This document shows, piece after piece, positions 19,595 to 62,716 of a DNA stretch of 64,000 nt. The stretch lies in NCBI RefSeq assembly GCF_988242995.1, contig NZ_OZ547043.1; one strand, written 5' to 3'. A model generated the notes under the pieces. It saw only the letters and a list, made by a program, of their open reading frames with translations. It searched no databases and was not told where the DNA came from. Position 1 is the first letter of the stretch; each line of letters starts with the position of its first letter. Made by a program: the position numbers and the translations under genes.

Positions 19595-19778
19595 AACAAA
19601 GCCGGGAATTACCCGGCTTTGTTATGGAATAAGGCGGTGCCTAACTCGACGTTTCGCCCGATGGTTGATATAGCTACGCTGATATCAGAAGTTGGACGGC
19701 AGGCACCTTGTTGTGCGTCATTCGAATTTTATGTAGCACGTCCCGAAGGGGCTGACATAAGTCGGTGAATGAGCCACT
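19595..19778 (-). ncRNA. glmY: GlmY small RNA (about 184 nt)
   Basis: Transcript read from 19778 begins AGUGGCUCAUUCACCGACUUAUGUCAGCCCCUUCGGG and ends in terminator caaagccggg-taat-tcccggctttg plus U-run (19597-19621); no ORF. Confidence 0.8.
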
Positions 19779-28974: not shown

Positions 28975-29055
28975 CGTTGGAATCGTGTGCTGCACAAAAT
29001 TAAAGTTGTAAAGTAAACCCCCTGTTCCTTACCAGTTCGGGGGTTTTACTTTTTA
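28975..29055 (+). ncRNA. ohsC: antisense small RNA repressing shoB (OhsC-like)
   Basis: Sigma70-like promoter (-35 TTGTAC 28939-28944, -10 CATAAT 28963-28968); 19-nt segment 28977-28995 matches 28728-28746 with one mismatch; terminator 29015-29055; ends inferred. Confidence 0.5.
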
Positions 29056-30935: not shown

Positions 30936-32548
<1,613 letters not shown>

Positions 32549-32790
32549 TCAGCACACGAAACAGACCTGATATACATGGCTCTGCTAACTGCTTCGCTGC
32601 AGTTTCAGTTTACCGGTATATGGGGACCAACGCTGTTTCGTGTGCCGTGGCAACCTGGAGGTGCCAACCTTAAACTTCGGGGGAATATTCTATACACAAC
32701 GACGGGGGATGTCGTTAGCCACGGGAGATTTATCTCATAAATAATTCACGTTGTCGCCATAACGGCGACAACGTGAACGAAGATGGGCTA

Positions 32791-33780: not shown

Positions 33781-35580
<1,800 letters not shown>

Positions 35581-35777
35581 AAAGTATGATTATTGTGCCT
35601 TAATGCCCGGTTAACCAGGCTTTTAGAAGTCGCTGTTCTGAGCTTAACGTCTGTATTAATAGAAACGCCGCATTCTACACTACAACATTGAGGCGAGGAA
35701 ATGTTCATACCGTATGGATTGTGGTATCTGGAAACGTCCTCGCATTTGTTATGCAAAATGCAACAAAGCCAGTGAAA

Positions 35778-36257
35778 TCACTGGCTCGCGTCTTCCGAAG
35801 ATGTTTCAAATCGCACAAGGCCAGGCGGCAATGCCACGCTTAAGATGATCGGTTGCCATTCAGACCGGGCAGCAAACTTTCGAGAGCAGCCACGTGCAAT
35901 CAGGAATCCACCAACGCCACCGAGAATCGCACCGCATAATGCTGCAATATCTGAAGCAAAGAGTAGCTGAAATAGTGAAGCGATGAGGAATAATCCCACC
36001 AGCGGCGACATATAAACCAGTAATGCGGAGCTAAGCAGGCTGCCTTCGGCGATTCCTAATTCTACTTTTTGCCCCGGCACTAACGGCTCATCACAGGGTA
36101 CGACAATGGTATGCGTGGTTTGCGGGCCAAGTTTATTCAACACGCGGCTACCGCAACCGGCACGTGAAGCGCAGCTGCTGCATGAGGCTTTAACATCACA
36201 ACTAACCAGCGCCTGCCCGTTTTCCCAGGAGACGACGGTAGCCCACTCTTTGATCAT
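35778..36257 (-). CDS. rseC: sigma-E regulatory protein RseC
   Basis: 159-aa ORF with Cys-rich N-terminus and hydrophobic C-terminus; start overlaps rseB stop. Confidence 0.9.
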   Translation of the reverse strand: MIKEWATVVSWENGQALVSCDVKASCSSCASRAGCGSRVLNKLGPQTTHTIVVPCDEPLVPGQKVELGIAEGSLLSSALLVYMSPLVGLFLIASLFQLLFASDIAALCGAILGGVGGFLIARGCSRKFAARSEWQPIILSVALPPGLVRFETSSEDASQ

Positions 36258-37210
36258 TGCGCTGCCCCGAACTTAATATTCTCGGCAATGCGTTTCGCCG
36301 TTTGCGGCGGCAGTTCACCGACAATGGTGATTTCGGCGTTATCACGTACGCTTGTACTGACGGTTCTGCGCCCGGTGCGCAACATCTGATCGGTGCTCGA
36401 TGGCGTAGCGCGGTTAACGTTTACCGAGAAGCTGAATAATCCGTCGGAATAGAGACGTGATTCGATAGGCATGTTGTCCATCGTCGGTAGCGGACGTCGA
36501 CTACTGGAAACTTCGCTAAAACCCTGTGGCAACCAGGTTGGCGTCCAGCTGAATTTAGCTTTTTCACCTACAGGAACAGAAAGCAACGGCGGCAAATTTG
36601 CCTTCGCCAGCGTCTGCATACTGCTGCTGATATCCTGATTGACATTAAAAGCAATCACGCGAAATTGTTCCAGCGTTTCACCATCGCGATCAAGGAGATC
36701 AACCCGCATCGGTAATTTCGATTCGGTGTCCATCCACACGATGTAGCTGTAGCGTGTACCATCTCGGGCAACCACACGAATGACTTCGCAAAGACGATCA
36801 GCAATACGCGTGCGCCCGACGGAGATAAAGTCGTAGTAAGGAGAAAGGCGTTTGAAATCGGTATAGATGAGCGATGGTAGAGAATCAACAATGTAATCGC
36901 CATTAAGCGTGAACGGTTCAAGTCCCGGTTCAAAATAGCTGATTTCATTGCCGCGCTGTACCACTTCCCGGCGCGGGCCATCCATTTGCAACAATTGTGC
37001 AAGAGGACGGTTATCGAGGCGTGCATGTCGATAACGCAGAGACTCAACACCCTGTTTATTGATGCTGATGAATGACAGCTCGTAATTCAGTGACTGACTG
37101 GCCAGGTTCATCTGCTGTAATAACGCCCCGGACGCGGGAGTGGCCGAGGCGTTAGCAGAGAATAACAGGCTACCTGTCACTAATGACATGGCAAACCAAA
37201 GTTGCTTCAT
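36254..37210 (-). CDS. rseB: periplasmic regulator of sigma-E, RseB
   Basis: 318-aa ORF with signal peptide; start overlaps rseA stop by 1 nt. Confidence 0.92.
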   Translation of the reverse strand: MKQLWFAMSLVTGSLLFSANASATPASGALLQQMNLASQSLNYELSFISINKQGVESLRYRHARLDNRPLAQLLQMDGPRREVVQRGNEISYFEPGLEPFTLNGDYIVDSLPSLIYTDFKRLSPYYDFISVGRTRIADRLCEVIRVVARDGTRYSYIVWMDTESKLPMRVDLLDRDGETLEQFRVIAFNVNQDISSSMQTLAKANLPPLLSVPVGEKAKFSWTPTWLPQGFSEVSSSRRPLPTMDNMPIESRLYSDGLFSFSVNVNRATPSSTDQMLRTGRRTVSTSVRDNAEITIVGELPPQTAKRIAENIKFGAAQ

Positions 37211-41351: not shown

Positions 41352-42686
41352 ATGACTGTAACGACTTTTTCCGAACTTGAACTCGACGAAAGCCTGCTGG
41401 AAGCCCTCCAGGATAAAGGTTTCACTCGCCCGACCGCCATTCAGGCTGCCGCCATTCCGCCTGCGCTCGATGGCCGTGATGTACTCGGTTCTGCGCCGAC
41501 AGGCACCGGTAAAACGGCGGCGTATCTGCTGCCAGCGTTGCAGCACCTGCTCGATTTCCCACGTAAGAAATCCGGTCCGCCGCGTATTTTGATCCTCACC
41601 CCAACTCGCGAGCTGGCGATGCAGGTGGCCGATCATGCCCGCGAACTGGCGAAACATACGCATCTGGATATCGCCACCATCACCGGCGGCGTAGCCTATA
41701 TGAACCACGCGGAAGTGTTCAGCGAAAATCAGGACATCGTGGTCGCCACGACCGGACGTTTGCTGCAATACATAAAAGAAGAGAACTTCGATTGCCGCGC
41801 GGTTGAAACGCTGATCCTCGACGAAGCAGACCGTATGCTGGATATGGGCTTCGCTCAGGATATCGAACATATTGCTGGCGAAACGCGCTGGCGTAAACAG
41901 ACCCTGCTCTTTTCCGCAACGCTGGAAGGCGATGCGATTCAGGACTTTGCCGAGCGTCTGCTGGAAGATCCGGTGGAAGTTTCTGCGAATCCCTCCACCC
42001 GTGAGCGCAAAAAAATTCATCAGTGGTATTACCGCGCCGATGACCTGGAACATAAAACCGCGTTGCTGGTGCACCTGTTAAAACAGCCGGAAGCGACTCG
42101 CTCAATCGTATTTGTGCGTAAGCGTGAGCGTGTACATGAGCTGGCAAACTGGCTGCGCGAAGCGGGCATCAACAACTGCTATCTCGAAGGTGAGATGGTA
42201 CAGGGCAAGCGTAACGAAGCGATCAAGCGTTTGACCGAAGGTCGCGTAAACGTACTGGTTGCCACCGATGTTGCCGCGCGCGGTATCGACATTCCTGACG
42301 TCAGCCACGTCTTTAACTTCGATATGCCGCGCAGTGGCGATACTTATTTGCACCGTATCGGACGTACCGCGCGCGCCGGTCGTAAAGGCACCGCAATTTC
42401 GCTGGTAGAAGCCCATGACCATCTGCTGCTGGGCAAAGTTGGTCGCTATATTGAAGAGCCAATTAAAGCTCGTGTAATTGATGAGTTACGCCCGAAAACG
42501 CGTGCGCCAAGCGAGAAGCAAACCGGCAAGCCATCGAAGAAAGTACTGGCAAAACGCGCCGAGAAGAAAAAAGCTAAAGAGAAAGAGAAGCCGCGGGTGA
42601 AAAAACGCCATCGCGACACCAAAAATATTGGTAAGCGCCGTAAACCGAGCGGAACGGGCGTGCCACCGCAAACGACAGAAGAGTAA
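41352..42686 (+). CDS. srmB: DEAD-box ATP-dependent RNA helicase
   Basis: Walker [13 protein letters not shown] box, SAT and HRIGRTAR motifs; Lys/Arg-rich C-terminal tail. Confidence 0.93.
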
Positions 42687-45032: not shown

Positions 45033-45722
45033 ATGGCAAACGAATTAACCTGGCATGACGTGCTGGCTGAAGAGAAGCAACAACCCTATTTTCTTAATAC
45101 CCTACAGACCGTCGCCAGCGAGCGGCAGTCCGGCGTCACTATCTATCCGCCACAAAAGGATGTCTTTAACGCGTTCCGCTTTACAGAGTTGGGTGACGTT
45201 AAAGTGGTGATTCTCGGCCAGGATCCTTATCACGGACCGGGACAGGCGCATGGTCTGGCATTTTCCGTTCGCCCCGGCATTGCGACACCGCCGTCACTGC
45301 TGAATATGTATAAAGAGCTGGAAAATACTATTCCCGGTTTCACCCGCCCTAATCATGGTTATCTTGAAAGCTGGGCGCGTCAGGGCGTTCTGCTACTCAA
45401 TACTGTGTTGACGGTTCGCGCAGGTCAGGCGCATTCCCACGCCAGTCTCGGCTGGGAGACCTTCACCGATAAAGTCATCAGCCTGATTAACCAGCACCGC
45501 GAAGGCGTGGTGTTTTTGTTGTGGGGCTCACATGCGCAAAAGAAAGGGGCGATTATTGATAAGCAACGCCATCACGTACTGAAAGCGCCGCATCCATCAC
45601 CGCTTTCTGCGCATCGTGGGTTCTTTGGCTGCAACCATTTTGTGCTGGCAAATCAGTGGCTGGAACAACGTGGCGAGAAACCGATTGACTGGATGCCAGT
45701 ATTACCGGCAGAGAGTGAGTAA
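45033..45722 (+). CDS. ung: uracil-DNA glycosylase
   Basis: 229-aa ORF with motifs GQDPYH and HPSPLS. Confidence 0.95.
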
Positions 45723-45769
45723 ATTTGCAGGAAAACGCCGGATGGCAGCGTTGCCACCCGGCTGATTTA

Positions 45770-46807
45770 TCAGGCTTTATTCTGACGCCACCATTCACCA
45801 AGCAAAACGCCAGTTGCGACAGAGATATTTAGCCCGGCAACGTTGCCAGTACCGTCAATCTTCACGCGCAGATCGTTTGGATCGCGTGCGGCATCCGGTA
45901 ACCCTTCATATTCCTGACCCAGCACCAGTACCATTTTCGCTGGCAGACTGGTTTTGAACAGCGGTTTACCCTGCTCGCTGGAAGTGGTCACTACGGTGTA
46001 ACCCGCCTGACGGAAATCATCCAGCACGTTAACAATGTTGTCGCCAGTAATCGGCTGAACGTGCTCTGCGCCGCCTTCTGCGGTACGGATAGCCGCACCC
46101 GACTCCAGCAGTGCCGCATCCTGCACCACAACGCCTTTCACGCCGAAGTGCGCACAGCTGCGCATCATGCCACCCAGGTTATGCGGGTTAGATTCGTTTT
46201 CCAGTGCCAGTACACAATCCTGCACGCCTGCCTGGCTTACCCACTGCTGCACGGTTGTACCGTTACGCTTTTTGATCAGGAAGCAAACGCCGCCGTGATG
46301 TTCCGTGCCTGACGCTTTTGTCAGTTCCGCTTCATCCACAACATGGTACGCTTTGCGGTTTGCTGCCATCCAGCGCAAGGCTTCTTTAAAACGCGGCGTT
46401 ACACTCTGGATAAACCAGGCGCGAACAATCGCTTCAGGACGGCTCTGGAACAGTGCCTGACAGGCATTTTCGCCGTAGACGCGGGTTTCTTCCGCACGCT
46501 GACGACGCAAAACTTCCGGATCAATAAAACTTTTACCACTGATGCCACCGTGATCGGCCTTTTCCGGCGTCTCATCACCCGGCGCGCGGGAAACTGTGCG
46601 CCACGGCGACTCTTCCCACTTGCGGTCACGGGGCTGACTCTGTTTGTCATCGCGGGCGGGGCGACGGCCACCGTCAGCACGAGATTTTCCTGGACGCCCG
46701 CCCCCTTTCCCGGTACGCGGGTTGTGGGTACGTTTATCAGAATCATCATCACTGCGGACATACATCACTTTGACCTTGCCGCTTTTACCTTTCATTTCAT
46801 CGTTCAT
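45770..46807 (-). CDS. yfiF: SpoU/TrmH-family RNA 2'-O-methyltransferase with basic low-complexity N-terminal region
   Basis: C-terminal SpoU methylase domain; N-terminal Arg/Lys/Gly/Asp-rich segment; start at MNDEMKGK (345 aa). Confidence 0.85.
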
Positions 46808-47013
46808 GCTTTTCTCCACCAGCGCTGCGCGAAGCGCGCAGATTACCCGAAGTGCGCGCGGTTCGCCATGATTTCGTACCAAAGCCTGCGACTATCATAC
46901 CTATTGAATAAAACAGATTGTTGTCTGGAACAATGTCCCCGATAATATGTAACATATTAGAAACATACCGGCGTCATTGCCGATAAGTCTCCTTACTCAT
47001 CCCGAGGTTAGTT

Positions 47014-47433
47014 ATGAATACCGTTTGTACCCATTGTCAGGCCATCAATCGCATTCCCGACGATCGGATCGAAGATGCGGCAAAATGCGGACGCTGCGGT
47101 CACGACTTGTTTGACGGAGAGGTGATTAATGCGACCGGTGAAACGCTCGACAAATTGCTGAAAGATGATCTACCTGTGGTGATCGACTTCTGGGCACCGT
47201 GGTGCGGCCCCTGCCGTAATTTCGCACCAATTTTTGAAGATGTCGCGCAAGAGCGTAGCGGTAAAGTGCGCTTTGTGAAAGTGAATACCGAAGCTGAACG
47301 TGAATTGAGCAGCCGCTTTGGTATTCGCAGTATTCCGACGATCATGATTTTCAAAAATGGTCAGGTTGTCGACATGCTTAATGGCGCAGTGCCGAAAGCG
47401 CCGTTCGATAGCTGGCTGAATGAATCTCTTTAA
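47014..47433 (+). CDS. trxC: thioredoxin 2 (N-terminal zinc-finger plus thioredoxin fold)
   Basis: CTHC and CGRC pairs near the N-terminus, then WCGPC active site; 139 aa. Confidence 0.93.
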
Positions 47434-48231: not shown

Positions 48232-50892
48232 ATGAGTCAGCGAGGACTGGAAGCACTACTGCGACCAAAATCGATTGCGGTAATTGGCGCATCGATGAAA
48301 CCCAATCGCGCAGGTTACCTGATGATGCGTAACCTGCTGGCGGGAGGCTTTAACGGACCGGTACTCCCGGTGACGCCAGCCTGGAAAGCGGTGTTGGGTG
48401 TGTTGGCCTGGCCGGATATTGCCAGCTTGCCCTTTACACCCGACCTTGCGGTTTTATGTACCAATGCCAGCCGTAATCTTGCTCTTCTGGAAGAGCTCGG
48501 CGAGAAAGGCTGTAAAACCTGCATTATTCTTTCCGCCCCGGCATCGCAACACGAAGATCTCCGCGCCTGCGCCCTGCGCCATAACATGCGCCTGCTAGGA
48601 CCAAACAGTCTGGGTTTACTGGCTCCCTGGCAAGGTCTAAATGCCAGCTTTTCACCTGTGCCGATTAAACGCGGCAAGCTGGCGTTTATTTCGCAATCGG
48701 CTGCCGTCTCCAATACCATCCTCGACTGGGCGCAACAGCGTGAGATGGGCTTTTCCTACTTTATTGCGCTCGGCGACAGCCTGGATATCGACGTTGATGA
48801 ATTGCTCGACTATCTGGCGCGCGACAGTAAAACCAGCGCCATCCTGCTCTATCTCGAACAGTTAAGCGACGCGCGACGCTTTGTTTCGGCGGCCCGTAGT
48901 GCCTCGCGCAATAAACCGATTCTGGTGATTAAAAGCGGACGTAGCCCGGCGGCTCAACGTCTGTTGAACACCACGGCAGGAATGGATCCAGCGTGGGATG
49001 CGGCTATTCAGCGTGCCGGTTTGTTGCGGGTACAGGACACCCACGAGCTGTTTTCGGCGGTGGAAACCCTTAGCCATATGCGCCCGCTGCGTGGCGACCG
49101 GTTGATGATTATCAGCAACGGTGCTGCGCCTGCCGCGCTGGCGCTGGATGCCTTATGGTCACGCAATGGCAAGCTGGCAACGCTAAGCGAAGAAACCTGC
49201 CAGAAACTGCGCGATGCACTGCCAGGACATGTGGCAATCTCTAACCCTCTCGATCTGCGCGATGACGCCAGCAGCGAGCATTATGTCAAAACGCTGGACA
49301 TTCTGCTCCACAGCCAGGATTTTGATGCGCTGATGGTTATTCATTCGCCCAGCGCCGCTGCTCCCGCAACAGAAAGCGCGCAAGTATTAATTGAAGCGGT
49401 AAAGCATCATCCCCGCAGCAAGTATGTTTCTCTGCTGACGAACTGGTGTGGCGAACATTCCTCGCAAGAGGCACGACGATTATTCAGCGAAGCCGGGCTG
49501 CCGACCTACCGTACCCCGGAAGGAACCATCACTGCTTTTATGCATATGGTGGAGTACCGGCGTAATCAGAAGCAACTACGCGAAACGCCGGCGTTGCCCA
49601 GCAATCTGACCTCCAATACTGCAGAAGCGCATCTTCTGTTGCAACAGGCGATTGCCGAAGGGGCTACGTCGCTCGATACCCATGAAGTTCAGCCCATCCT
49701 GCAAGCGTATGGCATGAACACGCTCCCCACCTGGATTGCCAGCGATAGCACCGAAGCGGTGCATATTGCCGAACAGATTGGTTATCCGGTGGCGCTGAAA
49801 TTGCGTTCGCCGGATATTCCACATAAATCGGAAGTTCAGGGCGTCATGCTCTACCTGCGTACAGCTAATGAAGTCCAGCAAGCGGCAAACGCTATTTTCG
49901 ATCGCGTAAAAATGGCCTGGCCGCAGGCGCGGATCCACGGCCTGTTGGTGCAAAGTATGGCTAACCGTGCTGGCGCTCAGGAGTTGCGGGTTGTGGTTGA
50001 GCACGATCCGGTTTTCGGGCCGTTGATCATGCTGGGCGAAGGCGGTGTGGAGTGGCGTCCTGAAGATCAAGCCGTCGTCGCACTACCGCCGCTAAACATG
50101 AACCTGGCCCGCTATCTGGTTATTCAGGGGATCAAAAGTAAAAAGATTCGTGCGCGCAGTGCGCTACGCCCATTGGATGTTGCAGGCTTGAGCCAGCTTC
50201 TGGTGCAGGTTTCCAACTTGATTGTCGATTGCCCGGAAATTCAACGTCTGGACATTCATCCTTTGCTGGCTTCTGGCAGTGAATTTACCGCGCTGGATGT
50301 CACGCTGGATATCGCGCCGTTTGAAGGCGATAACGAGAGCCGGCTGGCAGTGCGCCCTTATCCGCATCAGCTGGAAGAATGGGTAGAATTGAAAAACGGT
50401 GAACGCTGCTTGTTCCGCCCGATTTTGCCAGAAGATGAGCCACAACTTCAGCAGTTCATTTCGCGAGTCACCAAAGAAGATCTTTATTACCGCTACTTTA
50501 GCGAGATCAACGAATTTACCCATGAAGATTTAGCCAACATGACGCAGATCGACTACGATCGGGAAATGGCGTTTGTAGCAGTACGACGTATTGAACAAAC
50601 GGAAGAGATCCTCGGCGTCACGCGTGCGATCTCCGACCCTGATAACATCGATGCCGAATTTGCCGTGCTGGTTCGCTCGGATCTCAAAGGGTTAGGCTTA
50701 GGTCGACGCTTAATGGAAAAGTTGATTACCTATACGCGAGATCACGGACTGCAACGTCTGAATGGTATTACGATGCCAAACAATCGTGGCATGGTGGCGC
50801 TGGCCCGCAAGCTCGGGTTTAACGTTGATATCCAGCTCGAAGAGGGGATCGTTGGGCTTACGCTAAATCTTGCCCAGCGCGAGGAATCATGA
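48232..50892 (+). CDS. patZ: protein lysine acetyltransferase: NDP-forming acyl-CoA synthetase-like domains plus C-terminal GNAT domain
   Basis: 886-aa ORF; CoA-binding N-terminus, ATP-grasp-like middle region, C-terminal GNAT region. Confidence 0.9.
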   Translation: MSQRGLEALLRPKSIAVIGASMKPNRAGYLMMRNLLAGGFNGPVLPVTPAWKAVLGVLAWPDIASLPFTPDLAVLCTNASRNLALLEELGEKGCKTCIILSAPASQHEDLRACALRHNMRLLGPNSLGLLAPWQGLNASFSPVPIKRGKLAFISQSAAVSNTILDWAQQREMGFSYFIALGDSLDIDVDELLDYLARDSKTSAILLYLEQLSDARRFVSAARSASRNKPILVIKSGRSPAAQRLLNTTAGMDPAWDAAIQRAGLLRVQDTHELFSAVETLSHMRPLRGDRLMIISNGAAPAALALDALWSRNGKLATLSEETCQKLRDALPGHVAISNPLDLRDDASSEHYVKTLDILLHSQDFDALMVIHSPSAAAPATESAQVLIEAVKHHPRSKYVSLLTNWCGEHSSQEARRLFSEAGLPTYRTPEGTITAFMHMVEYRRNQKQLRETPALPSNLTSNTAEAHLLLQQAIAEGATSLDTHEVQPILQAYGMNTLPTWIASDSTEAVHIAEQIGYPVALKLRSPDIPHKSEVQGVMLYLRTANEVQQAANAIFDRVKMAWPQARIHGLLVQSMANRAGAQELRVVVEHDPVFGPLIMLGEGGVEWRPEDQAVVALPPLNMNLARYLVIQGIKSKKIRARSALRPLDVAGLSQLLVQVSNLIVDCPEIQRLDIHPLLASGSEFTALDVTLDIAPFEGDNESRLAVRPYPHQLEEWVELKNGERCLFRPILPEDEPQLQQFISRVTKEDLYYRYFSEINEFTHEDLANMTQIDYDREMAFVAVRRIEQTEEILGVTRAISDPDNIDAEFAVLVRSDLKGLGLGRRLMEKLITYTRDHGLQRLNGITMPNNRGMVALARKLGFNVDIQLEEGIVGLTLNLAQREES

Positions 50893-54557: not shown

Positions 54558-54677
54558 ATGCCTGGCAGTTCCCTACTCTCGCATGGGGAGACCCCACACT
54601 ACCATCGGCGCTACGGCGTTTCACTTCTGAGTTCGGCATGGGGTCAGGTGGGACCACCGCGCTAAGGCCGCCAGGCA
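54558..54677 (-). rRNA. rrfG: 5S ribosomal RNA
   Basis: 120 nt; reverse complement reads UGCCUGGCGGCC...CUGCCAGGCAU. Confidence 0.93.
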
Positions 54678-54770
54678 AATTCTGTTTTATTAACCCGCTT
54701 GTCGCCGGTTAATTTAATCTGTATCAGGCTGAAAATCTTCTCTCATCCGCCAAAACATCTTCGGCGTTGT

Positions 54771-57675
<2,905 letters not shown>

Positions 57676-57868
57676 TCACAACCCGAAGATGTTTCTTTCG
57701 ATTCATCATCGTGTTGCGAAAATTTGAGAGACTCACGAACAACTTTCGTTGTTCAGTGTTTCAATTTTCAGCTTGATCCAGATTTTTAAAGAGCAAATAT
57801 CTCAAACATCACCCGAAGATGAGTTTTGAGATATTAAGGCAGGTGACTTTCACTCACAAACCAGCAAG

Positions 57869-57944
57869 TGGCGTCCCCTAGGGGATTCGAACCCCTGTTA
57901 CCGCCGTGAAAGGGCGGTGTCCTGGGCCTCTAGACGAAGGGGAC
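57869..57944 (-). tRNA. gltW: tRNA-Glu (UUC anticodon) in the 16S-23S spacer
   Basis: 76-nt reverse complement GTCCCCTTCGTCTAGAGGCCCAGGACACCGCCCTTTCACGGCGGTAACAGGGGTTCGAATCCCCTAGGGGACGCCA. Confidence 0.93.
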
Positions 57945-58029
57945 GTGTCAGTCTGCTTCGCAAGACGCCTTGCTTTTCACTTTCTATCAGACAATCTGTG
58001 TGAGCACTTCAAAGAACGCTTCTTTAAGG

Positions 58030-59571
<1,542 letters not shown>

Positions 59572-60013: not shown

Positions 60014-62587
60014 TTACTGGACGGCGACAATCCGGTCTTCATTAACTTCCAGGCGAATAACTTTACCCGGAACCAATTCACCAGACAGTATTTGCTGTGC
60101 CAGCGGGTTTTCGATCTGCTGCTGGATAGCACGTTTCAGAGGACGTGCACCATAGACCGGATCGTAACCGTTCTCGCTCAGCAGTTTCAGCGCCTCGTCA
60201 GAAATGTGGATTTCATAACCACGTTCTTCCAGACGTTTGTACAGACGTTTCAACTGAATCTGCGCAATCGACGCAATGTGCTGTTCACCCAGCGGATGGA
60301 AGACCACCACTTCATCGATACGGTTAATGAATTCCGGACGGAAGTTATGGCTTACCACACCGAGCACCAGCTCTTTCATGTGCGCATAATCCAGTTCACC
60401 GAAGCGTTCCTGAATCAAATCGGAACCGAGGTTAGAGGTCATAATGACAACCGTATTACGGAAGTCGACCGTTCTCCCCTGCCCGTCAGTCAGACGCCCA
60501 TCATCCAGTACCTGCAACAGAATGTTGAAGACATCCGGATGCGCTTTTTCCACTTCATCCAGCAGGATGACGGAATACGGACGACGACGCACCGCTTCGG
60601 TCAGGTAGCCACCTTCTTCATAACCGACATATCCCGGAGGCGCACCAACCAGACGAGACACCGAGTGTTTCTCCATAAACTCGGACATATCGATACGGAC
60701 CATCGCCTCGTCGCTATCAAACATAAAGTTCGCCAGCGCCTTACAAAGCTCAGTTTTCCCCACACCCGTTGGGCCGAGGAACAGGAATGAACCAATCGGG
60801 CGATTTGGATCCGCCAGCCCCGCACGGCTACGACGAATAGCGTTAGATACCGCATCAACCGCTTCGTTCTGACCAATAACGCGATGGTGCAGCTCTTGCT
60901 CCATACGCAGCAGTTTTTCGCGCTCGCTTTCCATCATGCGAGAAACCGGAATCCCCGTCCAACGCGCCAGCACTTCAGCAATTTCGGCATCGGTCACTTT
61001 ATTACGCAACAGACGCATAGTTTTGCCTTCGAGCTGCGTTGCGGCTTCCAGTTGCTTTTCCAGTTCCGGGATTTTGCCGTATTGCAGTTCAGACATCCGC
61101 GCCAGGTCACCCACACGGCGAGCCTGTTCAATAGCGATTTTCGCCTGTTCCAGTTCCGCTTTAATGGTCTGTGTACCAGAAAGCGATGCTTTCTCTGCTT
61201 TCCACTCTTCTTCTAACTCGGAGTACTGACGTTCTTTGTCGCTCAGTTCTTCGTTGAGCATATCCAGGCGTTTTTTACTGGCTTCATCAGACTCTTTCAT
61301 TAACGCCTGTTGTTCCAGTTTAAGCTGGATGATACGACGATCGAGTCGGTCGAGTTCTTCTGGTTTTGAGTCGATCTGCATACGAATGCTGGATGCTGCT
61401 TCATCGATCAGGTCGATGGCTTTATCCGGCAGCTGACGGTCAGCAATGTAGCGATGAGACAACGTCGCCGCTGCAACAATTGCCGGGTCAGTAATTTGCA
61501 CATGGTGGTGCAATTCGTAACGTTCTTTCAGGCCACGCAGAATCGCAATGGTATCTTCAACAGAAGGCTCGGCAACAAACACTTTCTGGAAACGACGTTC
61601 CAGCGCAGCATCTTTTTCGATGTACTGGCGATATTCGTCAAGCGTCGTGGCACCTACGCAGTGCAATTCACCACGCGCCAGCGCCGGTTTCAGCATGTTT
61701 CCGGCGTCCATTGCGCCATCGGCTTTACCCGCGCCGACCATGGTATGTAATTCGTCGATAAACAGGATGACGTTGCCTTCCTGTTTGGCAAGATCGTTAA
61801 GCACGCCTTTTAAACGTTCTTCAAACTCACCGCGATATTTCGCCCCAGCCACCAGCGCGCCCATATCCAGCGCCAGTACGCGGCGGCCTTTCAACCCTTC
61901 CGGCACTTCGCCGTTGATAATACGCTGCGCCAGACCTTCAACGATGGCAGTTTTACCGACGCCGGGTTCACCAATCAGTACTGGGTTATTTTTAGTACGA
62001 CGTTGCAGCACCTGAATGGTACGGCGAATTTCTTCATCACGACCAATCACCGGATCGAGTTTGCCCTGTTCGGCTCGTTCGGTAAGGTCGATGGTATATT
62101 TTTTCAAAGCCTGACGTTGGTCTTCAGCACCTTGATCGTTCACGCTTTCACCTCCACGCATTTGTTCAATCGCTTGAGTAATGTTGGCGGTGGTCGCCCC
62201 TGCTGCTTTCAGGATGTCGGCCAGCGTGCCGCGAGACTCAAGTGCCGCCAGAACGAACAGTTCTGACGAGATAAAGTTATCACCACGTTTTTGCGCCAGC
62301 TTGTCGCAAAGATTAAGAACGCGCACCAGATCCTGTGATGGCTGGACATCACCACCAGTACCTTCAACCTGCGGTAAACGATTTAATGCCTGATTGATAT
62401 CTGTGCGCAACTGGCCAGCATTTATGCCAGCGGATGTTAATAAAGGACTAACCGAACCCCCTTCCTGATTCAGCAGGGCGCTCATTAAATGAAGTGGTTC
62501 GATGAATTGGTTGTCGTGCCCGAGTGCAAGTGATTGGGCATCGGCAAGAGCAAGCTGGAATTTATTAGTAAGACGATCCAGACGCAT
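60014..62587 (-). CDS. clpB: AAA+ disaggregase chaperone ClpB
   Basis: Start at [11 protein letters not shown] (857 aa); two nucleotide-binding domains (GEPGVGKT and GPTGVGKT) with coiled-coil middle domain. Confidence 0.93.
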
Positions 62588-62626
62588 AACTCCTCCCATA
62601 ACGGATCAAAGTTGCTACTGGAGATT

Positions 62627-62654
62627 AAATGAGGTCATCCCTCAATTATTCAAG
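62627..62654 (-). promoter_or_regulatory. sigma32 (heat-shock) type promoter of clpB
   Basis: Minus-strand CCTTGAA-N14-CCTCATTTAA resembles the sigma32 consensus, about 35-60 nt upstream of the clpB ATG. Confidence 0.55.
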
Positions 62655-62716
62655 GTTATTGACCAGATTAATGTGAAAAGAAAATCACGCGTACCGGATC
62701 GTCTTGATTCTTTAGG

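Follow-up and report, generated by a model that had tools for sequence, protein, structure and literature searches.

Modular Anatomy of the Charged, Predicted Disordered N-Terminal Tail of the SpoU-Family Protein YfiF

Introduction

Reports on the charged extension of YfiF go back to 2007. In their survey of SPOUT proteins (COG0566B), Tkaczuk et al. (2007) have described the extension of YfiF as positively charged and presumably disordered (PMC1829167); the protein and the feature are the same as those treated here, and the description was given without anatomy. The survey also reported that YfiF keeps all the residues typical of 2'-O-methyltransferases and that it arose by duplication of RlmB within the Gammaproteobacteria (PMC1829167). 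SPOUT enzymes in general recognise their substrates via appended, positively charged extensions (PMC9508554). RlmB (YjfH), the 23S rRNA Gm2251 2'-O-methyltransferase (1gz0), shares with YfiF a two-domain core and three catalytic motifs. It differs in starting at the position of YfiF residue 108 and in having no tail. The mitochondrial enzymes MRM1/Pet56 and MRM3/RNMTL1, eukaryotic members of the YfiF clade, likewise carry an RlmB-type core after a positively charged N-terminal extension (PMC1829167). Both act on large-subunit rRNA within assembly intermediates, and MRM3 is among the fold matches to YfiF (7oi6 and 9hcd). The extensions of the two mitochondrial enzymes include import signals and have no detected sequence similarity to the YfiF tail.

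Several studies have reported on the partners of YfiF in the cell. A 2024 iCLIP study has shown binding of YfiF to rRNA, tRNA, csrB/C, arrS, chiX and its own mRNA, and slower growth upon deletion of yfiF (PMC11066096). In the same study, interactions of YfiF with Rne, Rnr, RluC and PhoL are reported, the protein is postulated to be a ribosome dormancy factor, and its methyltransferase function is only hypothesised (PMC11066096). A data-mining study of 2012 had placed YfiF among the proteins that co-purify with ribosomal proteins and rRNA-modification enzymes (PMC3384335), and proteomics published in 2026 counts it with those proteins that interact with RNase E and are enriched in large particles (PMC13106914). 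In the literature searched, which reaches to 2026, no substrate is assigned to YfiF, as had been stated in the sequence-only reading that preceded this analysis, and few other E. coli SPOUT methyltransferases still lack an assigned target.

The charged, presumably disordered extension of YfiF has thus been known since 2007, and this kind of feature is commonplace among RNA enzymes. New here are the modular anatomy of the tail, its KVKVMYVR and SPW motifs, the conservation of these motifs, the dN/dS values and a disorder boundary at residue 96. The anatomy refines the known picture of YfiF and leaves its current understanding unchanged.

The yfiF Locus and the Folded Core

The stretch of E. coli DNA analysed, called the window below, is 64 kb long, and all positions refer to it. 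It encodes yfiF on the minus strand, with the following features in and just past the gene.

45770..46807, minus strand: yfiF coding sequence, 345 codons and stop (ORF, translation, NCBIfam PRK10864)
46265..46480, minus strand: L30e-like substrate-binding domain SpoU_sub_bind (PF08032), aa 110-181 (Pfam E = 5.8e-15)
45800..46213, minus strand: SPOUT (SpoU_methylase) domain (PF00588), aa 199-336 (Pfam E = 1.1e-31)
45737..45762, minus strand: terminator-like hairpin just past the yfiF stop (consensus scan: 11-bp stem, then a T-run)

Translation of the ORF gives a protein of 345 aa. The gene is flanked by ung and trxC, and the order ung-yfiF-trxC-tapT-patZ is found both in the window and in the E. 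coli reference. RefSeq annotates yfiF with the identical start in 5,425 of 5,426 E. coli genomes, under the product name "tRNA/rRNA methyltransferase". The 1.3-kb yfiF region was matched in 5,425 of the 5,426 complete E. coli genomes, mostly at about 97.8% identity, and the best match (99.6%) came from a soil isolate.

The earlier assignment of the gene to yfiF and the SpoU family is borne out by the profile searches. YfiF scored 665.9 bits against the NCBIfam equivalog NF008117 / PRK10864 (cut-off 267), with residues 1-345 aligned to profile positions 1-344, tail included. The match to PF00588 reached 110 bits against a cut-off of 29.7. The RlmB equivalog TIGR00186 scored 116.6 bits and the RlmB model NF008386 91.3 bits, below their cut-offs of 160 and 366. 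Since YfiF falls below the RlmB equivalog cut-offs, it is a paralog of RlmB, distinct from RlmB itself. The catalytic residues N207, R216, G297, E299, L326, N327 and S329 are kept in 79-81 of 81 orthologs. Of the three SpoU motifs (N..R in motif 1, G.E.G in motif 2 and S-L-N-x-S in motif 3), all are present, with one exception at position 325 of motif 3, where Escherichia has Gly and 68 of the 81 ortholog sequences have Ser. The Gly could mean reduced catalysis in Escherichia.

An AlphaFold2 model of YfiF, built with a 141-sequence alignment, gave a core with pLDDT above 90, and the top Foldseek matches of the model were the SPOUT enzymes 1gz0, 9h1k and 3nk6. The nearest solved structure by sequence as well as by fold is RlmB (1gz0), which is aligned from YfiF residue 108. 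Profiles of RlmB, TrmH and TrmL likewise align only from residue 108 or later and below their own cut-offs, in agreement with the earlier statement that the tail is not found on most SpoU/TrmH enzymes. Because the first Pfam domain begins at aa 110 and the RlmB models at 108, about 108 residues precede the known fold.

Composition and Predicted Disorder of the Tail

Three features were delimited in the tail by charge and by structure prediction.

46520..46807, minus strand: predicted disordered N-terminal tail, aa 1-96 (AlphaFold2 pLDDT 43-53, without secondary structure)
46652..46735, minus strand: basic Gly/Arg/Lys patch, aa 25-52, net +9 over 28 residues, pI 12 (charge segmentation)
46490..46519, minus strand: extra helix, aa 97-106, leading into the L30e-like domain (DSSP on the AlphaFold2 model, pLDDT 78-94)

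The sequence-only reading had placed at 46500-46807, which corresponds to codons 1-102, a low-complexity, basic extension dominated by Arg, Lys, Gly and Asp and preceding the methyltransferase fold by some 110 aa. The N-terminal peptide that it quoted is exactly as encoded, and each of the four residues indeed makes up 10.2-13.9% of aa 1-108 (R 13.9%, G 12.0%, D 11.1%, K 10.2%). The same 108 residues contain 26 Lys and Arg versus 20 Asp and Glu, and about 15% hydrophobic residues. The word basic applies only to aa 25-52, a patch that has the lowest sequence entropy in YfiF (2.9-3.0 bits) and is kept throughout the Enterobacteriaceae. An acidic patch, SDDDSD (aa 19-24, net -4), precedes it and more acidic stretches follow, and the tail as a whole has a net charge of +6 and a pI of 9.8. 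The YfiF tail is a polyampholyte and not simply basic.

The 64-kb window has 56 ORFs of 150 aa or more, and the composition was compared with that of every 96-residue segment in them. The tail of YfiF had the lowest hydrophobic fraction (0.15; next ORF 0.24) and was in the top three for charge, with a fraction of charged residues of 0.42 and a GRAVY of -1.7. The highest charged-residue fraction in the window, 0.46, was that of the C-terminal region of the DEAD-box helicase SrmB, likewise a charged, poorly hydrophobic extension on an RNA-handling enzyme. Tails that are charged and disordered generally lend bacterial RNA enzymes an auxiliary affinity for RNA. SrmB is, like YfiF, linked to the large ribosomal subunit, but its tail sits at the other terminus, on another catalytic domain, and the two tails share no motifs.

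A likeness also exists to the RGG/RG boxes of eukaryotes, since the YfiF tail is similarly rich in Gly and Arg, predicted to be disordered, and could bind RNA non-specifically. Unlike these boxes, the tail is without RGG/RG repeats, and Arg follows Gly only as GGGR and GGRR. Reading of aa 1-108 found neither RGG nor RG, and an RGG box was rejected for the tail on these grounds.

The disorder prediction agreed with the earlier view of the tail as intrinsically disordered. Because low pLDDT extends to residue 96 and a helix occupies residues 97-106, the disordered part would comprise aa 1-96; the extent of about 110 aa before the fold holds with respect to the RlmB models, and the modelled boundary of disorder lies at about residue 96, not 110. 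The helix packs against the core in the model, and R101, R102, Q103, R104, E106 and E107 do not vary among the 81 aligned sequences from Enterobacterales. The tail motifs described below were not docked onto the core in the AlphaFold2 model. Among solved structures, a search for relatives of the tail gave only chance matches to designed armadillo repeats, with no single stretch significant, and no solved SPOUT structure covering the tail was found.

Translation of the Tail

The start of yfiF was compared in 80 orthologous loci drawn from the Enterobacteriaceae and Erwiniaceae.

46814..46820, minus strand: Shine-Dalgarno sequence GGTGGAG, 6 nt upstream of the ATG (sequence read)

The same ATG and an upstream GGAG core were present in 80 of the 80 Enterobacterales loci, at a distance of 4-9 nt and mostly of 5-7 nt. 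Invariant residues of the tail are encoded by two to six synonymous codons (four for V12, five for R74, six for S23), and residues 2-14 vary with codon periodicity. M5 is replaced by Leu or Phe in most genera, and no conserved internal start was found near residues 97-110. The spacing between a conserved leader box and the ATG shifts by 1-2 nt between genera; therefore, the in-frame TTG that lies 25 codons upstream is not the start. The sequence-only reading had named start-codon mapping against the extension as the result that would overturn it. Instead, the tail is translated, because the ATG and the Shine-Dalgarno sequence are conserved, synonymous codons are varied, and dN/dS is low in two blocks of the tail, called A and C here. 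An untranslated tail or another start was rejected from the conserved ATG and Shine-Dalgarno sequence, the loss of the upstream frame and the codon-periodic variation.

Modular Anatomy and Selection

The anatomy of the tail was derived from alignments of 17 and then of 81 Enterobacterales sequences. The dN/dS values are Nei-Gojobori medians over 411 moderately diverged pairs (405 pairs for block A).

46649..46807, minus strand: conserved block A, aa 1-53, ending GGRRPAR (median dN/dS 0.11)
46610..46648, minus strand: hypervariable Arg/Asp-rich spacer, aa 54-66 (median dN/dS 0.82)
46484..46609, minus strand: conserved block C, aa 67-108 (median dN/dS 0.07)
46754..46777, minus strand: hydrophobic/aromatic motif KVKVMYVR, aa 11-18 (invariant in 81 Enterobacterales sequences)
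46580..46609, minus strand: SPW motif, aa 67-76 (P68, W69, S73, R74 and P76 invariant in 81 sequences)

For the folded core the corresponding medians were 0.04 for the L30e-like domain (residues 109-185) and 0.10 for the SPOUT domain (residues 186-345). The values show blocks A and C to be under purifying selection as strong as that on the catalytic domain. Both blocks are also fixed in length: NPRTG stands at position 29 in 75 of 80 loci, and SPW lies 42 aa from RVYGE in 62 of 78 loci. Across genera, the stretch between NPRTG and SPW, which includes the spacer, varies from 34 to 83 aa. The spacer is built of Arg/Asp-rich repeats such as DDRKR, DRPRS and RD, with DNA tandem repeats of 15 nt x 2.7 in Lelliottia and of 6 nt x 8.3 in Superficieibacter, and a search of the E. 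coli tail found no DNA tandem repeats. The spacer is nearly neutral and changes in length through tandem repeats, and it looks dispensable beside the two strongly selected motif blocks. About two thirds of the tail is conserved position by position and not filler, and the label of low complexity was too simple. Overall, the earlier reading of the tail was essentially right. W69, Y16, the patch of aa 25-52 and the length of the spacer offer precise handles on how YfiF finds its substrate.

Distribution and Distant Homologs

Extensions of this kind were followed among the 150 closest relatives of YfiF in a library of 1.8 billion proteins, which gave 127 full-core representatives (50%-identity clusters). 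An N-terminal extension of at least 50 residues was present in 63 of the 127 YfiF-like representatives and one of at least 80 residues in 55, the longest reaching about 370; such extensions are thus common within the YfiF-like clade. The extensions of the 63 representatives typically contain 18-31% Lys and Arg, 10-27% Asp and Glu, and 10-25% hydrophobic residues. Those with names are all gammaproteobacterial (Symbiopectobacterium, Sodalis, Zophobihabitans, Pseudoalteromonas and Corallincola), a distribution that agrees with the published origin of YfiF by RlmB duplication (PMC1829167).

The motifs were found in part of these distant extensions. [ST]PW occurred in 12 of the 63, versus 0.59 expected (about 20-fold), and 0 of 1000 shuffles reached 12. 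V-x-V-M-Y near the N-terminus occurred in 4 of the 63, versus 0.04 expected, and V[KR][VI]MY is kept in Symbiopectobacterium, Sodalis and two further representatives at 41-56% identity. These counts reflect shared descent, yet the motifs outlast the sequence around them. A search of 5.8 billion proteins with the tail only returned fragments of YfiF and nothing else, and the idea that the tail moves as a module between enzymes was rejected on that result.

The Leader of yfiF

One further feature spans the start codon.

46743..46852, minus strand: ultraconserved nucleotides -45 to +65, comprising the leader box CTTCGGGTAATCTGCGCGC and the first approximately 22 codons (nucleotide conservation)

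From Escherichia through Erwinia, the stretch from about -45 to +65 hardly varies in nucleotide sequence. Synonymous codon identity is 0.72-0.79 in codons 1-25 of yfiF and about 0.5 elsewhere in the gene.

Because YfiF is reported to crosslink to its own mRNA, the ultraconserved leader may be a candidate regulatory leader. No covariation was found in the leader and 5' coding region. RNAalifold gave only two hairpins, a GC one of 4 bp and one in codons 9-18, both invariant and without compensatory changes, the single-sequence fold of the leader was not better than shuffled (z = +1.9), and no Rfam family matched it. A hairpin seen in E. coli, GCGCGCA...TGCGCGC, was rejected as a conserved leader element, as its 5' arm varies. 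A sigma-70 promoter scan of the yfiF-trxC intergenic region gave no match at the scan thresholds, and the conserved leader boxes were rejected as sigma-70, sigma-E or sigma-32 promoters owing to a misfit of spacing on manual reading.

Possible Role of the Tail and Alternative Explanations

The tail of YfiF is probably, if only modestly so, a flexible tether between the enzyme and RNA or ribonucleoprotein particles. YfiF is a gammaproteobacterial paralog of RlmB with an L30e-like domain, a predicted knotted SPOUT domain and intact 2'-O-methyltransferase motifs, and its arm consists of three parts. The first (aa 1-53) brings together KVKVMYVR, the acidic SDDDSD and the basic patch of aa 25-52. 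The second is the Arg/Asp spacer of aa 54-66, nearly free to drift in sequence and variable in length by repeat slippage. The third (aa 67-96) carries the invariant SPW motif, followed by the helix of residues 97-106, which is docked on the core in the model. The basic patch may lend non-specific electrostatic affinity for RNA, and the two aromatic motifs may make specific contacts with RNA or a ribonucleoprotein; the most plausible partner would be rRNA in ribosomal or pre-ribosomal particles. The spacer would then act as a flexible tether that sets the reach of the dimeric catalytic core toward a target 2'-OH. We infer that YfiF is catalytically active and that RNA binding is mediated by the tail itself. 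Tethering by the tail fits the rule for SPOUT extensions (PMC9508554) and the reported association of YfiF with ribosomes.

Several observations count against such a tether. With a net charge of only +6 and 20 acidic residues, large parts of the tail would contribute nothing to electrostatic binding of RNA. Strong conservation of short motifs at specific positions is as compatible with a protein partner as with RNA, and the motifs are undocked on the core in the predicted structure. To our knowledge, all known 2'-O-methylations of E. coli rRNA already have assigned enzymes, which also counts against the tether, as does the Gly of Escherichia at motif-3 position 325, with the reduced catalysis that it could mean.

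The tail may instead be mainly a region for protein interaction or condensate recruitment, its motifs docking on a protein partner, for example in RNase E/degradosome bodies, among the ribosomal proteins or in the form of an assembly factor, and YfiF serving in assembly or dormancy for the most part without need of methyl transfer; this explanation, which is held to be rather unlikely though worth weighing, draws on the resemblance of short, invariant, fixed-position aromatic motifs split by a drifting spacer to linear interaction motifs. The presence of YfiF among the RNase E interactors in large particles (PMC13106914), the interactions with Rne, Rnr, RluC and PhoL together with the postulate of a dormancy factor (PMC11066096), and S325G in motif 3 of Escherichia point the same way. 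However, the interaction data come from large-scale screens in which bridging by RNA is possible, and the strict retention of the other catalytic motif residues, with a dN/dS of 0.10 in the SPOUT domain, argues for maintained enzymatic activity. It is less probable still, and on the whole improbable, that the tail is a regulatory element for autoinhibition, stability or protease tagging, in which the acidic patch would mask the basic patch or an RNA surface, and that its coding sequence doubles as an mRNA operator. The adjacency of aa 19-24 (-4) and aa 25-52 (+9), the ultraconservation from -45 to +65 with the excess synonymous conservation of codons 1-25, and the crosslinking of YfiF to its own mRNA (PMC11066096) would be explained by it, whereas the leader has no RNA structure supported by covariation, folds no better than shuffled sequence (z = +1.9) and matches no Rfam family, and other causes commonly lower the rate of synonymous change around start codons.

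Harmless, functionless low-complexity filler produced by repeat expansion is a very unlikely account of the tail. It finds its footing in the spacer, with a dN/dS of 0.82 and a length that varies by tandem repeats, but blocks A and C make up 95 of the 108 residues, are selected as strongly as the catalytic domain and are fixed in length, and the SPW motif persists into distant orders; from these comparisons, filler is tenable for the spacer sequence only and is contradicted for blocks A and C. That the extension is an annotation artefact, with the real start downstream or at the upstream TTG at 46882, is hardly credible. The TTG is in frame, 25 codons upstream of the ATG, and many database entries for the tail region are truncated or frameshifted, but the frameshifted entries follow an alternative open frame at 46399-46761 and look like sequencing errors. 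Against the artefact stand also the ATG at 46807 and GGTGGAG conserved in the 80 of 80 loci, the upstream frame that is not preserved where leader-ATG spacing differs by 1-2 nt, the Leu or Phe in place of M5 in most genera, the codon periodicity of residues 2-14, and the lack of a conserved internal start near residues 97-110.

A bolder reading, which is speculative and to be regarded as improbable, would make the tail a bipartite recognition device in place of an unspecific arm, with its invariant KVKVMYVR and SPW motifs binding a specific site on a ribosomal or pre-ribosomal particle or on RNase E bodies. The tail-coding part of the gene and the leader box CTTCGGGTAATCTGCGCGC would jointly make up an mRNA operator for repression of YfiF synthesis by YfiF. 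If this were true, YfiF would sense ribosome assembly or dormancy under control of its own synthesis, and would not be a simple housekeeping methyltransferase. The rRNA motif published from iCLIP, AACCTTTACW, is absent from the yfiF mRNA, and its sole exact copy in the 64-kb window lies in 23S rRNA.

Conserved leader and start region of yfiF

Nucleotides around the start codon of yfiF, the gene of a SpoU-family RNA methyltransferase, are strongly conserved, and the conserved stretch includes an upstream leader box.

46743-46852, minus strand: near-invariant stretch spanning the yfiF start codon (-45 to +65), from conservation across 80 Enterobacterales loci
46834-46852, minus strand: yfiF leader box CTTCGGGTAATCTGCGCGC, part of the near-invariant stretch

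Synonymous conservation was raised in codons 1-25 (0.72-0.79 vs about 0.5). In the -45 to +65 stretch no covariation was found and there was no match in Rfam. Because the yfiF mRNA is reportedly among the RNAs that YfiF crosslinks to (PMC11066096), the stretch may be a regulatory or autoregulatory leader. A sequence resembling the leader box, CATCAGGTAACCTGCGCGA, also occurs inside patZ (48306-48324, minus strand) with 3 mismatches in 19 nt. Matches of this kind are expected by chance about 0.02 times in the window, and the near-copy may be a coincidence.

Variation in the N-terminal tail and in motif 3

The Arg/Asp-rich spacer of the predicted disordered tail has been lengthened through DNA tandem repeats in genera other than Escherichia, and the tail of the window's own gene contains an open alternative frame. 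The orthologous loci L017 and L037 carry the repeats, and residue 325 belongs to motif 3 of the catalytic domain.

L017 3176-3215: spacer tandem repeat in Lelliottia, 15 nt x 2.7
L037 3184-3233: spacer tandem repeat in Superficieibacter, 6 nt x 8.3
46399-46761, minus strand: open alternative frame of 120 codons within the yfiF tail
45833-45835, minus strand: yfiF codon 325, motif-3 position, from ortholog comparison

The Corallincola-like protein cluster to which P0163 belongs (90% identity) includes members 421, 465, 590 and 617 residues long, a spread that points to recent changes in length. Many database "proteins" jump into the alternative frame (e.g., P0111, P0121, P0123, P0124, and P0131); such entries look like frameshift sequencing errors in a G-rich region and not like real products. 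Position 325 is Ser in 68 of 81 YfiF orthologs and in >90% of the wider family. It is replaced by Gly in Escherichia, Entomohabitans and two Kluyvera genomospecies (VESLN to VAGLN), a substitution that could affect catalysis by YfiF.

Lineage and other RNA-related features of the window

Over window positions 45700-47020, identity to most E. coli genomes is only about 97.8%, and it reaches 99% or more in just 17 of 5,425; the window therefore comes from an E. coli lineage that has been sequenced less often. The top match is an isolate from soil and leaf litter.

41352-42686, plus strand: srmB, DEAD-box helicase of 50S assembly
54560-59571, minus strand: complete rRNA operon (16S, tRNA-Glu, 23S, 5S)
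Rfam, gathering score:
19631-19778: GlmY
28976-29052: OhsC
32464-32678: rncO
35462-36293: AsrC
57683-57791: StyR-44
62568-62706: RyfD

The six Rfam elements are known ones and ordinary for this part of the chromosome. SrmB is a second RNA enzyme that, like YfiF, carries a charged extension at one end, here the C-terminus; of all 96-aa windows in the stretch, the one in this SrmB tail has the greatest fraction of charged residues (0.46, residues ~335-430). The published YfiF iCLIP motif AACCTTTACT has a single exact copy in the window, located in the 23S rRNA at 55596-55605 (about nucleotide 2071).
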